Shown piece after piece: positions 1,723 to 49,064 of a stretch of 64,000 nt of DNA. Below the pieces are notes generated by a model. It was not told where the DNA came from. It saw nothing but the letters and a program-made list of their open reading frames with translations, and did no database searches. A program made the translations under genes and the position numbers. Positions within the stretch are counted from its first letter, which is position 1. Each line of letters starts with the position of its first letter. Where the stretch lies: positions 6,431 through 70,430 of the forward strand of contig NZ_JBBINI010000014.1 in the NCBI RefSeq assembly GCF_037443965.1, in the 5' to 3' direction. Source of the DNA: Meiothermus sp. Its GTDB lineage: Bacteria > Deinococcota > Deinococci > Deinococcales > Thermaceae.

Positions 1723-2994
1723 TTAGCTTAGCAGACCGTACAGCGCGCTTAAAACCTGCTCTTCCCAGCGGGTGTAGGCCGAGTAGAGGCCCCTATGCTG
1801 GGCGGGGTCACAGCCCTGGCCCCCCAGGATGTACACCAGCGCGTGAGCGGCCTCGAGGTCGAACAGCAGGCCGCTCAGAAGGCCATAGGCATCGCCTAAG
1901 TGGCCGAACCAGGGCCGGGGGTGGCCCTGCACCGGGCAGTCCTGGCCCGGCTGGTTGGTAAAACGCCAGACCCCCAGCCCCCAGCTTAGGGCCTGGCCGT
2001 TCATCGAATCGCCGTTGGAGCCTTCGAAGATCCATTGGGCTTCCATCATCTTTTGCAAAGTTGCCGCCTTCAAGAACGGGGTCGGCCCCACCCGGCCTTG
2101 GTGCAAAAAAAGCTGGGCTATCCGGGCCAGCTCGAGGGCCGAGGCCCGCAAGCCCCCTTGCGGCGAGAAGAAGGTAGAATTGGTTCCAGGCCGGTAGGTA
2201 TTTAGATCAACGGTAATAAAGCCATTGTCGGGCCGGTCAGGGTTTGGTGTGACGGGGCCCGCAGGAACCACCCCGCGGTGGTCGTCCACCTGCGCCACCC
2301 AGGGGCCAGCCGGGTTCCATACCCCGCCGGTTTGCTTGCGGTAGAGCACCGCTAAGTTGCCCAGGGCTTCCGGGGAAAGGCGGCTAGGGTTGAAGCCACC
2401 CCCCAGGCCCAGGGGGCGCAGCACCTCGTTCTCCATGAACAGGTCGAAGCGTTGGCCCGACGCGCACTCCAGCAGGGTGCCCAGCACGCCGGTATTAAGG
2501 TTGGCATAGCAGGCGTAGCCGCCGGGCGGGTGGGCCGGGTCGAAGTGAGCGCCCCCCTCAAAAAAACGCCCCTCTGGATGAAAAAAGTCCTGCAAGGTGT
2601 AAGGGCTGGGAATGGAGTAGCGCGAGCCGTCGCGCAACGAGGAGGTATGCGAGAGCAGGTGCCGAACCCGGATGGTCGCCTGTGGAAACGCCGGGTTGCG
2701 CAGGGGAAAGCCCAGGTACTGGCTGACATCGGCCTCGAGGTCGAGCTTTCCCTGCTCCACCAGCCGCATGGCCCCCAGCGCCACTACCAGCTTGGAGATC
2801 GAGGCCACCCGGAAGCGGGTCTGATGGTTCACGGGCAGACTTTGGCTGGGGTCGGGGTCAATGTGGCGATACCCAAACGACTGGGCATAGACGACTTCCC
2901 CGCTCCGAACCACCGCTACCTGTAGGCTGGGAACGGCACAAAAGGAGTTGCCGAGCAGCGGTAGTAGGCTTTGGCTAACCTTTTCAGGCCCCAT
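1723..2994 (-). CDS. Serine hydrolase, beta-lactamase/class C-like family
   Basis: 423 aa; SxxK (ASISK), LLSHTSSL, YAN, GHLGD.YG motifs. Confidence 0.85.
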   Translation of the reverse strand: MGPEKVSQSLLPLLGNSFCAVPSLQVAVVRSGEVVYAQSFGYRHIDPDPSQSLPVNHQTRFRVASISKLVVALGAMRLVEQGKLDLEADVSQYLGFPLRNPAFPQATIRVRHLLSHTSSLRDGSRYSIPSPYTLQDFFHPEGRFFEGGAHFDPAHPPGGYACYANLNTGVLGTLLECASGQRFDLFMENEVLRPLGLGGGFNPSRLSPEALGNLAVLYRKQTGGVWNPAGPWVAQVDDHRGVVPAGPVTPNPDRPDNGFITVDLNTYRPGTNSTFFSPQGGLRASALELARIAQLFLHQGRVGPTPFLKAATLQKMMEAQWIFEGSNGDSMNGQALSWGLGVWRFTNQPGQDCPVQGHPRPWFGHLGDAYGLLSGLLFDLEAAHALVYILGGQGCDPAQHRGLYSAYTRWEEQVLSALYGLLS

Positions 2995-3069
2995 TAGCCC
3001 AGATTGTATCGGGTGCGTGCAGAGGGCTTTTCACAAAAATGTACCAAGTATATACGGTGCCCACCCAAC

Positions 3070-3098
3070 TTGACTATAACCTCCAACCCTGCCATACT
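3070..3098 (+). promoter_or_regulatory. Sigma70-type promoter of the lipoprotein cassette
   Basis: TTGACT (3070-3075), 17 nt, CATACT (3093-3098); then an 8-bp inverted repeat (3102-3109/3120-3127), GGAGGT RBS (3133-3138) and ATG at 3149. Confidence 0.65.
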
Positions 3099-3148
3099 GA
3101 ATCAGGCTATCTCGAAATGTAGCCTGAACTATGGAGGTGTATTCAGCC

Positions 3149-4902
3149 ATGCGTGTTTCTGTCGTTGGTCGTTGGTCGTTGGTCGTTGGTCGTTGGTCGT
3201 TGGTCTAGTCCTGTTGCTGGCGGCGTGCGGGACGCAGCAGGTCAAAACTGCATATGATGCACAGCCATGGGATGGTGAACCGGTGCCGCTGGCCCTGGCC
3301 CAAGCCCTGACCCTGGGGATGAAGGTTTCTGCGGGTGGTGTGAGCCTGCAGGAAGCGAAGGGCTACAAATTTGCCCGCGAAACCGTTTATGACCTCTCCC
3401 TCAAACCTTTGCATCACCTGTTGTTGGTGGGTCCAGAAACCGCCGATTTTTGGAGCACCATCGCCAACCCCAAAGACAAAAACTACGCGCTGTACGCGAT
3501 TGGTGCAACAGATAAACGTAGCTTCTTTTCGTTCATCCTGCCTGCCGCCAGCTTCAAGAGCCTGACCGAAACACGAGCCAGGGCAGGATCGTTCAAGCGC
3601 TTCTTGAGTCCAGCGGCAGGGGTGCTGTACCTGGAAGACAACACAGGACGGGTTTGGGATGTGAATACCGCTACAGAAGTGAGCGCCGAGCAGATGCAGG
3701 TGTGGCGCCAAGCCCAGCGGGTGCTGTTCGAGCAGCGGCAGAAGGATGGGATTCTGGACAAAATTAAGGAAGACTGGGACAGACTTCGCGCTGAAGCCAG
3801 CCAGAAGGGACTGGCCCAAAGCGGGGGGCTCCCCACCCTGGACGAGGTTACCCTGCCCAACGGCCACCTCGACGTGCCCAAACTGCTAAACGCACTGGAA
3901 GCCCAGAAAGCCGCCAGGGGGGTTAGCGCCAACTACACCAACGAACGGGCCTGGTGCATGGGCTGGTTCTGTGCGGGTATGGGTTATGCCAGTGTGGTGC
4001 GCAAGAACCGCTACAATGGTGACCTGGCGAATAACAACCTCTACAACCCGGATAACCCCGAAGACTGCACCACAGCCAACAAGTGCCGGATTACAAGCGA
4101 CATTCGTAACGCGGACTTGGGCAACTGGCAATATATACCTAATTTCCGCACCGTTCCAGATGGCGGTTACTGGGGTGCTTGGGATTTTGGCCTTTCTGGG
4201 TTGCCACCGCTGGAGTATGTTGGTTGTGGGCCTATGTCCATCGTGCGCGTTTTTGCATGGTATGCCACTCAGCGGAGTGCATTTGGCAGTGGTGCGAACG
4301 TGAATTTCGTAAATGCGAACGCTACGCCCCCCAGTTCAGCACGGGATGTTGCCCACCAGATGTTTGAACCGGTTCACCTAGGTGGAAATGCGTATCAACC
4401 ACGCATAGCCCGCTACACCGATACCTGGTTCTTCATGGGAGGTGGCATGACCCGCGATACCAACATAATTCCCGGTGCCAACAACTGGATTCGAGATAAT
4501 GCCAGCATAGAGGGCAAAAACTGGGAGATGCGCGGCAGCCACAAAGCTTTTGTTAACTTTGTATATGCCGGAGCTACCCTGACCATCGTTGGGCTTCCCA
4601 TCGCCTGGATAGACTTCAGTCAACATACCTGGCGCGTGCGCGATATAGCGCGTGGCAAGATTGGTCGGGACAATGAACCGGTGATTGCGCTGTATCCCAC
4701 CGGAGGAGGTGGGGGCCTCGAGGGTCACTATGCCATGTCCCAGGCTTACATTGTGCATGAGGGCTGGTTCTCTGCAAATGTGTTGCTATGGATTACCAAT
4801 ATTCAAGAAGATTGGAAGAAAGATGCTCGGGCAGGAAGTTTTGTTAACGTGACCGATATGGCCGCTTACTACAGTGGTGCGTACGGCATGTACCGGAGGT
4901 AA
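3149..4902 (+). pseudogene. Large lipoprotein with putative papain-like Cys/His peptidase domain; frameshifted in the signal peptide (possible phase-OFF state)
   Basis: RBS-ATG 3149 hits TAG at 3206; the lipobox LLLAAC and the rest of the protein are in the frame of ORF 3004..4902. Motifs YVGCGPMS and LEGHYA. Confidence 0.65.
3161..3205 (+). repeat. Heptanucleotide tandem repeat (GTCGTTG)6 plus GTC
   Basis: Six perfect copies counted directly at 3161-3202. Confidence 0.95.
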
Positions 4903-4907
4903 CCTCA

Positions 4908-5357
4908 ATGTACAAGTGGCTTCTAACTGTGCTTGCTTTGCTATTGACAGCATGTCCTGTTTTTTCCTTCCATAATGCGCCTGCCATCCCAATTGAATAC
5001 AGAGCAGCGGGGGTGTGCCAGGGGGTGGAACTAACCAATAACAATGCTGATGGCCAATGGAGCATTCATTACATGCGGCGACCTGAACCTCATAACACCA
5101 ATCTTCCATCAGGACAGGCTGTTCGTATCCCCGATCCCAACCCCTCACCTGAGTTGACCTTATATGTGATATCGAGGGAATTAATGAGGACCGGTTCTGA
5201 GTTTGAGGTCGATCTCAGCTGGCGGTGTTTGCCGGATAAGCAGCCCGAACGGGTTCGGTTTACCTACCGCTGGTCTCGTGAGGGATTGGTAATCACAGAG
5301 GATGCCAGCCTGGCTTCTGGGCTTAGGATTGTTCAAGAGAGCCGAAACGCTTGGTGA
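4908..5357 (+). CDS. Small lipoprotein A (putative inhibitor/immunity partner)
   Basis: 149 aa; lipobox LLTAC; RBS GGAGGT overlaps the upstream stop; paralog of 5754..6200. Confidence 0.8.
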   Translation: MYKWLLTVLALLLTACPVFSFHNAPAIPIEYRAAGVCQGVELTNNNADGQWSIHYMRRPEPHNTNLPSGQAVRIPDPNPSPELTLYVISRELMRTGSEFEVDLSWRCLPDKQPERVRFTYRWSREGLVITEDASLASGLRIVQESRNAW

Positions 5358-5744
5358 GTGCGGCAACAGATACCCCCAAGCCTTGGCCCGATATTCCGCA
5401 CCCTCCTCACTCCAGGTGGCAATATGCCCGCAAGATATGGATTACCGCAGCGCTGCACATTGATAGACTTCAGTCAACACACTTGGCGGGAACGCGGCAT
5501 TGTGTGTGGAAAAATTGGTCGGGACAATGAACCGGTGATTGCGATGTATGGGCTGGGCACTTTGGGCCACTTTGCTATGTCCCAGGCCTACATTGTGCAC
5601 GAGGGCTGGTTCTCGGCGAATGTGTTTCTGTGGATCAGGAGAGAAGCAGACTACAGGAGGCAAGATATGTTGCAAGGTAGTTTTGTCAACGTTACCGACA
5701 TGGGCAGTTACTATAGCGGGGCATATGGAATGTACAGGAGGTAG
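5358..5744 (+). pseudogene. Orphan copy of the C-terminal ~95 aa of the large lipoprotein
   Basis: 5462-5744 is homologous to 4608-4902 (IDFSQHTWR, KIGRDNEPVIA, AMSQAYIVHEGWFSANV, YYSGAYGMYRR); no signal peptide or catalytic Cys. Confidence 0.8.
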
Positions 5745-5753
5745 GTGGTTGCG

Positions 5754-6200
5754 ATGAAGTTTTACTGGCTGTTTCCCCTCCTGGCCGTTGCCTTAGCAGG
5801 ATGCGTGTGTTGTTACACTGTACCTAGCACCGAAGCAGAATACACATCAAAAGGGGTATGTTCGGGGGTTGAGCTGACGACCAACAACCAAAAAATAACG
5901 GGTATTCGCTACATGTACAGTACAGAGGGTAGAACAGACTCGGTACTTCTGACACCAGGCCAGCCTGTGCGCATTCCAGACCCGAACCCTGAGCCCAGGC
6001 CAACCTACTATGGTCTTGGTTTTGATGGCCCTGTGCGCAACTCAGCGGAGGTAGACCTTACCTGGAGGTGTTTGCCGGATAAATCGCCCTTAAGGGTACA
6101 GTTTATCTATTATGTCGGCCAGTTCCCGAAAAAAGAGCTGCGGATTACGGAAAACCCGGCCTCGCCCCACGGATTTGACATCGAAGTGGTGAATCTCTAG
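5754..6200 (+). CDS. Small lipoprotein B (paralog of A)
   Basis: Lipobox LAGC; shares GVC.GVELT.NN, GQ.VRIPDPNP and EVDL.WRCLPDK with 4908..5357. Confidence 0.8.
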   Translation: MKFYWLFPLLAVALAGCVCCYTVPSTEAEYTSKGVCSGVELTTNNQKITGIRYMYSTEGRTDSVLLTPGQPVRIPDPNPEPRPTYYGLGFDGPVRNSAEVDLTWRCLPDKSPLRVQFIYYVGQFPKKELRITENPASPHGFDIEVVNL

Positions 6201-48679: not shown

Positions 48680-48786
48680 ATACCTACCCCTGGGCCAGCA
48701 TACGCGATAGAAGCCGAGGGTATGCAAGCAGCGAACTGCCTCGAGCCTTCCGCAGCCGCCGGATGTTGCTGAACTTGGGATTTTGG

Positions 48787-49064
48787 GTATCCGGTTTCAT
48801 AGAGATACTCATTAAATCTCAACGAGGCACATCTTTGTGAAGCTAAGCGGGCTTCCTTCCAAGGGGCGGTATCGCCCTCCGCTACGCGGATAACTTCCAA
48901 GGGGCGGTATCGCCCTCCGCTACGCGGATAACTTCCAAGGGGCGGTATCGCCCTCCGCTACGCGGATAACTTCCAAGGGGCGGTATCGCCCTCCGCTACG
49001 CGGATAACTTCGGTCGGGGTGAACCATCTTTGTTCATGAGACGGTTCACCCAAACTCGGTATGA
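48787..49064. repeat. Composite palindromic repeat of the 42290 family carrying a tandem expansion
   Basis: Left hairpin (ttcatagagat..atctttgtgaa), 4 x 38 bp, then TTCGGTCGG hinge, GGTGAACC..GGTTCACC hairpin and CGGTATGA end. Confidence 0.6.
48856..49007. repeat. Four perfect 38-bp tandem copies
   Basis: CTTCCAAGGGGCGGTATCGCCCTCCGCTACGCGGATAA at 48856, 48894, 48932, 48970; no spacers. Confidence 0.97.

Follow-up and report, generated by a model that had tools for sequence, protein, structure and literature searches.

Slipped-strand contingency loci are textbook features of host-adapted pathogens and have rarely been documented in free-living extremophiles. In lic1 (licA) of Haemophilus influenzae, which Weiser et al. 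reportedly described in 1989, CAAT repeats are said to follow start codons lying in different frames, with strong, weak or no expression according to unit number. In the opa family of Neisseria, the coding region for the leader peptide contains CTCTT units whose slipped-strand mispairing shifts the reading frame, and several paralogues switch independently of each other (PMC3960869). Length variation of an intragenic poly-C tract within populations of Gardnerella toggles the extracellular enzyme encoded by nanH3 between full-length and truncated peptides (bioRxiv 10.1101/2020.09.16.300947). Here, we analysed a 64,000-nucleotide stretch of Meiothermus sp. DNA (NCBI RefSeq assembly GCF_037443965.1, contig NZ_JBBINI010000014.1, positions 6,431 to 70,430 of the forward strand; hereafter the window) that carries a heptanucleotide repeat near the 5' end of a lipoprotein gene. 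As in opa, the unit length is not divisible by three, and the repeat sits between the start codon and the mature-protein sequence, where it encodes hydrophobic residues of the signal peptide. We read the locus, with a probability of roughly 0.7, as a simple-sequence contingency locus that would switch translation of a surface lipoprotein gene by slipped-strand changes in unit number.

A perfect heptamer array separates a strong start codon from the lipobox

Tandem Repeats Finder identified a (GTCGTTG) array at 3161-3205 (period 7, 6.4 copies, 100% matches, no indels, score 90), the top short-period array of the window. A two-unit GTCGTTG pattern matched five times, always inside the tract and nowhere else in the window; shuffling gave an expectation of 0.32 matches, and 0 of 100 shuffles reached five. 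The leader reads GGAGGTG-tattcagcc-ATG CGT GTT TCT (GTCGTTG)x6 GTC TAG TCC TGT TGC TGG CGG CGT GCG GG, placing this perfect repeat in the 5' coding region, between ATG 3149 and the Cys codon at 3226. Translation from ATG 3149 yields MRVSVVGRWSLVVGRWSLV and stops at TAG 3206. The lipobox frame reads ...RWSLVVGRWSLVVGLVLLLAAC with its Cys at 3226 (also ...CFCRWSLVVGRWSLVVGLVLLLAACGTQQ...) and runs on to a stop at 4900-4902.

Most of what an initial annotation of this DNA had proposed for the leader was confirmed by these results, namely six units within a signal-peptide coding region, a GGAGGT ribosome-binding site serving ATG 3149, and the stop at TAG 3206. Its placement of the lipobox in another frame also held, with 558 codons counted from the Cys. 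The "consensus promoter" it had named is present as a promoter-like site, consensus-like with a score of 9/12 and a TG extension. Shine-Dalgarno (SD) strength was calculated for each start as the duplex energy between the 3' end of 16S rRNA and the preceding 18 nt. ATG 3149 paired most strongly of these starts, at -13.6 kcal/mol, which places it in the highest 1% of positions in the window.

When nine orthologous and paralogous leaders (the window together with L001, L002, L126, L127, L131 and L139) were aligned, they shared an invariant TTGAC and an invariant ATG at fixed spacing, including loci in which that ATG is out of frame. The motif AAnTGTAGCC, approximately 10 nt upstream of the SD, was likewise invariant, and the single leader deviating from GGAGGTG carried GAAGGTG instead. 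The family signature can be written as GGAGGTGNATTCAGCTATG followed by the repeat. Since TTGAC, the motif, the SD and the ATG are kept even where the ATG is out of frame, their conservation marks ATG 3149 as a conserved initiation site. Hot-spring relatives (runs X2-X4) matched the window closely from about position 3115 onwards, with 3 differences in 525 nt after the repeat. Where the window has its 177-nt promoter region (2938-3114), they carried another sequence, of 157 nt. This difference upstream of 3115 suggests an exchange of the promoter or leader.

Because 7 and 3 are coprime, the tract encodes the same cyclic heptapeptide, RWSLVVG, in each of its three frames, three units corresponding to RWSLVVG exactly. 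In-frame alleles therefore retain an Arg-containing hydrophobic signal peptide and differ in its length alone, which shows how such a repeat can be tolerated inside a signal peptide.

Unit number would set one of three translational states

To follow the reading frame, the leader was rebuilt with 1-10 units. ATG 3149 was in frame with the lipobox at 1, 4, 7 or 10 units, bearing out the earlier claim that 1, 4 or 7 units restore the frame. GTG 3153 was in frame at 2, 5 or 8 units, a point that the initial annotation had missed, and neither start was in frame at 3, 6 or 9 units. In the proposed mechanism, slipped-strand mispairing at replication, the presumed cause, would add or remove whole GTCGTTG units, and every unit gained or lost would shift the frame by one base because 7 mod 3 is 1. 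The first class of alleles would be ON, with ATG 3149 joined to the lipobox and the 558-codon mature protein. In the second class, translation would presumably begin at GTG 3153 with low output, since its SD spacing is poorer than that of the ATG, and the third class would be OFF. A three-state switch built from the ATG frame, the GTG frame and the third frame is thus possible. With six units as assembled, ribosomes from ATG 3149 would stop at TAG 3206, so that the lipoprotein would be off or at most very weakly made. This agrees with the OFF state proposed earlier for this assembly, in which the strong-SD start is out of frame and its product ends after 19 codons. The product switched would probably be a membrane-anchored papain-like cysteine protease, made along with a small downstream lipoprotein. 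We infer that slippage is the cause, that a clone can switch back and forth, that protein level responds to unit number and that the product acts as a protease.

Orthologous alleles differ by whole repeat units

The most direct support for a switch was provided by orthologous loci that differ in unit number. At the Meiothermus ruber-type locus, eight metagenome contigs (L131-138) carried 3 units, in frame from the ATG (MRVSSFGRWSLVVGLVLLLAACG), and encoded the normal lipoprotein signal peptide MRVSSFGRWSLVVGLVLLLAAC. M. ruber DSM 1279 (CP005385; L139) and two contigs (L140-141) carried 2 units, with an ATG frame that stops after 12 codons. One further contig (L143) had 4 units, which brings the GTG into frame, and its gene had been called from that GTG. 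No mismatch was found between L143 and L131-138 in 190 nt upstream and 1800 nt downstream of the tract. Across the 1800 nt after the tract, the 2-unit allele showed 3 mismatches. The 190 nt before its tract gave 47 mismatches in an ungapped comparison, which are taken to be a misalignment via an indel or an insertion sequence upstream in L131, and this flank was not used.

A second series came from a lineage 93% protein-identical to the window, represented in three samples of one project. L127, with 15 perfect units, is in the ATG frame; L128, with 14, is in the third frame, and L129, with 13, in the GTG frame. Their flanks matched without a single mismatch over 439-462 nt before the tract and 3355-3552 nt after it. 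In addition, a related lineage with the window-type leader (ATG, 9 nt, tract) carried 4 units in frame, encoding MCSAVVGRWSLVVGLGLLLAAC; the 4-unit ON form with a normal signal peptide that had been calculated for the window therefore exists in a relative. The in-frame alleles combine a charged n-region, a hydrophobic h-region and a lipobox (MRVSSFGRWSLVVGLVLLLAAC, MCSAVVGRWSLVVGLGLLLAAC), and lipidation is predicted. Among all these alleles the frame changed by whole repeat units only. The switchability asserted in the initial annotation is accordingly supported at orthologous loci, where unit number appears to be the only or nearly the only difference between alleles with the same flanks. 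At one out-of-frame allele, L126B, no ATG, GTG or TTG occurs in the lipobox frame between the upstream stop and the Cys, so at least some OFF states are truly off.

The coding region is maintained although most alleles are out of frame

The open reading frame (ORF) of the mature protein was intact, at 558-565 codons, in all eight full-length loci. Pairwise dN/dS values across these eight loci were 0.07-0.19 where dS was measurable, and most sampled alleles were out of frame with the ATG. These values indicate that the mature ORF is under purifying selection. Intact ORFs, low dN/dS and frame changes by whole units only are the signature of a reversible switch, not of decay.

About 15 close relatives of the protein were found, the named ones belonging to Meiothermus and one to Thermus arciformis. 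The window itself has 62% GC and derives from a subsurface metagenome, with near-identical DNA present in hot-spring metagenomes. An exhaustive profile search extended the family to about 70 clusters at 50% identity, and the members with an N-terminus mostly start with a signal peptide and lipobox. Gene callers disagreed on the starts of family genes (MPLALAQ, MKVSAGG, MLAACG, MVVGLV...), as expected for genes whose 5' ends are frame-shifted. The M. ruber orthologue (P0019, P0020, P0025, P0026 = Mrub_0155, P0018) has been annotated with at least five different starts, giving 532, 544, 567, 574 and 584 aa. With most of these starts the signal peptide is lost, as a consequence of the repeat.

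Paralogues share the leader cassette and a distant homologue carries a different repeat

The leader and its heptamer tract recurred at paralogous loci. A Deinococcota metagenome-assembled genome (L001) contained two modules in tandem, each behind an almost identical copy of the promoter and leader; their tracts of 7.7 and 3.0 units are both out of frame. In the complete genome of Meiothermus sp. BPIM01, two modules had 5 and 2 partly degenerate units, again both out of frame, and the metagenome run of the window itself (X1) included another locus that shares the leader and is in frame with 3 units. In L001 (60-300 and 2790-2990), approximately 170 nt of promoter and leader are nearly identical before two paralogues whose mature parts differ strongly. 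The leader cassette in L001 appears to have been homogenised or copied between the paralogues.

A distant homologue from an organism of 49% GC (L142) carried (GTCAATCC)x11.5, a perfect 8-base repeat at L142 579-670, directly after the ATG and before the lipobox, and its ATG is out of frame with the lipobox. That a homologous gene has another repeat in the corresponding position argues that selection favours a switch at the signal-peptide site. The origin of the heptamer could be traced to a protein sequence: the Thermus arciformis orthologue encodes GRWWLVVGFSGLVASC (GRWWLVVG) with non-repetitive DNA, and the equivalent stretch in other relatives is HRWWLVAGLALLLASC or KRWSLVLGMVAGLAAC. The T. 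arciformis case points to an origin of the repeat from the n/h-region of an ordinary signal peptide.

A wider reading is put forward tentatively, at somewhat short of even odds. It takes the Meiothermus loci as a multigene contingency set, in which a mobile promoter-leader-heptamer cassette would provide three-state switches for paralogous protease lipoproteins and their small partners, the 8-nt repeat of the 49% GC organism being convergent.

Occurrences of the heptamer outside the family were also surveyed. A metagenome scan for three exact units returned, among the matches listed, soil, marine and other unrelated DNA and no Meiothermus locus. One such sequence is a multi-copy element, ...gaggcgcttattgagataggctgtgtcgtgac-(GTCGTTG)3-(TGGT)n-tgtcacgcgcgtgcactgtggccaaacggtgcatcctaggc, found in L007, L009, L017-L023, L028 and others (Ga0209149, Ga0209339, Ga0209338 and Ga0209637 contigs), whose short-unit numbers vary between copies. 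A homology search with the 44-aa repeat-encoded signal peptide gave short spurious ORFs over GTCGTTG tracts in unrelated organisms and nothing else.

Weighing the contingency locus against other readings

Several observations weigh against a contingency locus. Among the sampled alleles, the frame with neither ATG nor GTG was the commonest (about 9 of 16), an excess that is not significant (chi-square estimate, p about 0.1). It could mean unrecognised expression, for example from an internal TTG or by re-initiation at the TAG; it could also reflect selection for OFF. The 13-15-unit counts could partly be assembly noise, and this series was weighted below the 2-, 3- and 4-unit alleles, which are immune to it, because tracts of 91-105 nt lie near the limit of short-read assembly. 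The distant homologue L142 is cut by an insertion sequence (DDE transposase). A literature search returned no paper on Mrub_0155, and no expression or proteomic data were found. Finally, sequencing depth does not separate 6 from 7 units at the window's own locus. In run X1 the tract collapses to two repeat-only unitigs of 31 nt and 36 nt, whose depth ratio of 85/60.8 = 1.40 is compatible to a similar degree with 6 units (1.5) and 7 units (1.33), and whose absolute depths are lower than either count predicts.

The best surviving alternative, which we regard as unlikely, supposes that the gene is never truly OFF. Translation would begin at a TTG of the lipobox frame within the tract (3172 or 3193), the protein would be made at all times, and the repeat would only vary the length of the signal peptide or tune the expression level. 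A tract of at least three units supplies an in-frame TTG in every frame, and internal TTGs were used by annotators in P0002, P0025, P0032 and P0053. The product from TTG 3172, MVVGRWSLVVGLVLLLAAC, is an acceptable lipoprotein signal peptide; its start lacks an SD, however, with a pairing of -2.7 kcal/mol that is weaker than the background mean of -4.6. TTG 3193 pairs moderately (-8.0 kcal/mol), so the earlier statement that the in-frame TTGs lack a ribosome-binding site applies to 3172 and needs correction for 3193. An initiation inside the repeat would also account for the prevalence of the third frame among sampled alleles. Nevertheless, every leader keeps the SD and ATG, and such conservation would serve no purpose for an unused ATG; 2-unit alleles would yield MVVGLVLLLAAC alone, with no charged n-region; and L126B has no canonical start in the lipobox frame at all.

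A miscount of the window's tract is less probable still. In this reading the six units are an assembly error or the consensus of a mixed population, most cells having 7 (or 4) units with the gene ON. Fourteen public runs were examined as Logan k=31 contigs, which end at 3190 and restart at 3176, and the collapse of the tract in such graphs, with the intermediate depth ratio in run X1, leaves room for a count of seven. The same ratio excludes 4 or 5 units as the majority in X1, and no k=31 contig of that run bridges the flanks with 3 or fewer units. Moreover, ordinary reads easily cross a tract of 45 nt, as do assembly k-mers of at least 55, and even a miscounted locus would still be a length-variable switch.

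Recoding was judged highly improbable. It would have translation start at ATG 3149 and undergo a -1 shift at the TAG, or re-initiate near it, turning the OFF frame into a regulated low ON. In most third-frame alleles the ATG frame does end at a TAG or TAA derived from the conserved CTA(G/A) Leu codon after the tract, and in-frame TTGs occur 13 nt upstream and 8 nt downstream of this stop. As read from the sequence, however, no X XXY YYZ slippery site is present and the P-site codons GTC and GGC re-pair poorly at -1, and L128 has no stop at that position. Programmed frameshifting was considered unlikely because the slippery site is absent.

An ordinary frameshifted pseudogene with a functionless repeat, to which the out-of-frame majority of alleles, the adjoining remnant paralogue (5358-5744) and the insertion sequence in L142 might point, was given just as slight a chance and rejected, because eight loci keep intact ORFs of 558-565 codons at dN/dS 0.07-0.19, the leader is conserved, and in-frame alleles co-exist with identical flanks, frameshifts arising only by whole units.

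The lipoprotein is a putative papain-like protease with a small partner gene

The product of the large gene was examined by structure prediction. An alignment of 10 sequences gave a predicted local distance difference test (pLDDT) score of 48; with a 35-sequence alignment (A2), the AlphaFold2 model of the mature protein reached pLDDT 88 and a predicted TM-score (pTM) of 0.91. The best eight fold matches in the PDB were all clan CA cysteine proteases or their zymogens (SpeB, prostaphopain B, Treponema TDE_0362, IdeS), and these matches were weak (E 0.04-0.7, probability no higher than 0.69, TM 0.18-0.36). Gln302 is invariant in the 35-sequence alignment, along with the candidate catalytic residues Cys334 and His501 (Table 1). 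No Pfam or NCBIfam family matched the large lipoprotein at E <= 0.1, the family profile found no sequence relative in the PDB, and the protein did not fall within a curated peptidase family. From these features we read the product as probably a papain-like protease that is anchored by lipid and has a pro-like domain at its N-terminus.

Downstream, the SD of the first small lipoprotein gene (GGAGGT) lies within the last codons of the large gene, and the two genes are probably co-transcribed. The pair of large and small genes recurs in related loci, the downstream partner encoding 148-151 aa in L127-L145. In the window, the remnant of a second large paralogue (5358-5744) is fused behind the first small gene and is followed by a second small gene (5745-6200). 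This arrangement resembles the scar of a deletion or recombination within an array of tandem modules.

Elsewhere in the window, a perfect 38-nt tandem repeat of 4.1 copies (CTTCCAAGGGGCGGTATCGCCCTCCGCTACGCGGATAA) was found at 48856-49011. It is intergenic, an ORF ending at 48772 and the next ORFs starting at 49061 and 49131, and each unit holds a small GGGCG-GTAT-CGCCC hairpin. Searches of the 64 kb with Rfam gave no match.

Table 1 Features of the heptamer locus and its neighbouring genes, in window coordinates.
Feature	Position	Strand	Basis or remark
Promoter-like site: -35 TTGACT, 17-nt spacer, TG-extended -10 (TGC CATACT)	3070..3098	+	Predicted; scan 9/12
Conserved 5'-untranslated region motif AAATGTAGCC	3115..3124	+	A-A-x-T-G-T-A-G-C-C invariant in 9/9 leaders
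Shine-Dalgarno GGAGGTG	3133..3139	+	Duplex with 16S 3' end -13.6 kcal/mol; kept in 8/9 leaders
ATG 3149 and 19-codon truncated frame (predicted OFF product), ending TAG 3206	3149..3208	+	Translation
Alternative start GTG	3153..3155	+	In frame with lipobox at 2, 5 or 8 units (frame simulation)
Simple sequence repeat (GTCGTTG)x6.4	3161..3205	+	Tandem Repeats Finder
In-frame TTG inside repeat, would give MVVGRWSLVVGLVLLLAAC; no SD	3172..3174	+	Pairing -2.7 kcal/mol
In-frame TTG inside repeat, would give MVVGLVLLLAAC; no charged n-region	3193..3195	+	Pairing -8.0 kcal/mol
Lipobox L-A-A-C; Cys codon 3226-3228	3217..3228	+	Frame of the long ORF
Mature lipoprotein ORF, 558 codons and stop; putative papain-like cysteine protease with N-terminal pro-like domain	3226..4902	+	Intact ORF
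Candidate catalytic Cys334 (VGCGPMS, helix start)	4225..4227	+	Invariant in 35 sequences; model helix 334-348
Candidate catalytic His501 (EGHYAMSQ; GHY)	4726..4728	+	Invariant in 35 sequences
Small lipoprotein gene (MYKWLLTVLALLLTAC..., 149 aa)	4908..5357	+	5 nt after the stop of the large gene
C-terminal remnant of second large-lipoprotein paralogue (IDFSQHTW...GKIGRDNEPVIAMY...YGMYRR)	5358..5744	+	Comparison with family consensus
Second small lipoprotein gene (…LAVALAGC…), partner of the remnant module	5745..6200	+	SD pairing -11.2 kcal/mol

Comparison with known systems

Full-text literature searches yielded no relevant paper on phase variation in Meiothermus or Thermus, and no report of phase variation by simple sequence repeats in Deinococcota was found in the literature. 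The Meiothermus locus may be the first such case in this phylum. If it is confirmed, hot-spring Deinococcota would use stochastic switching of a surface enzyme, and a culturable test system is at hand in M. ruber DSM 1279 with its 2-unit OFF allele. Confirmation would also explain the mostly truncated starts annotated for the M. ruber orthologue, at least five in number, and hence why the family has been missed as a lipoprotein. If the multigene reading holds as well, stochastic display of surface proteases would be selected in environmental biofilms, perhaps by phage or predator pressure and not by host immunity.

On the side of the product, the Meiothermus protein may resemble clan CA zymogens (streptopain SpeB of family C10, staphopain of C47, IdeS of C66, and TDE_0362) in its candidate catalytic Cys at a predicted helix N-terminus, its GHY His, its invariant Gln and its pro-like N-terminal domain. 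In contrast to these proteases, in which the Gln precedes the Cys by about 6 residues, its Gln lies 32 residues before the Cys. The small downstream gene recalls the staphopain-staphostatin operons, and this is offered as a lead only.

On the side of the switch, nanH3 has a homopolymer in a Gram-positive host and a cell-wall-anchored sialidase, as opposed to a heptamer in Meiothermus. The resemblance to lic1 is found in the start codons, ATG 3149 and GTG 3153 lying in two frames before an intragenic repeat, with the GTG presumably used; unlike the Meiothermus locus, lic1 has a 4-nt unit and encodes a cytoplasmic choline kinase for the decoration of lipooligosaccharide. By analogy, the closest parallel to the Meiothermus locus is the Neisseria opa family, and the locus is best described as an opa-type contingency locus. 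Both have paralogous copies that each carry their own tract, seen in Meiothermus at L001, L126 and run X1. The two differ in unit length (7 nt in Meiothermus, 5 nt in opa) and in product, a lipobox lipoprotein of the signal peptidase II type compared with a beta-barrel outer-membrane adhesin. They also differ in lifestyle, a free-living Deinococcota thermophile against a host-restricted pathogen, and switching in Meiothermus is proposed from sequence comparison. The proposed mechanism is of a known kind, in a host and a gene family that are new.

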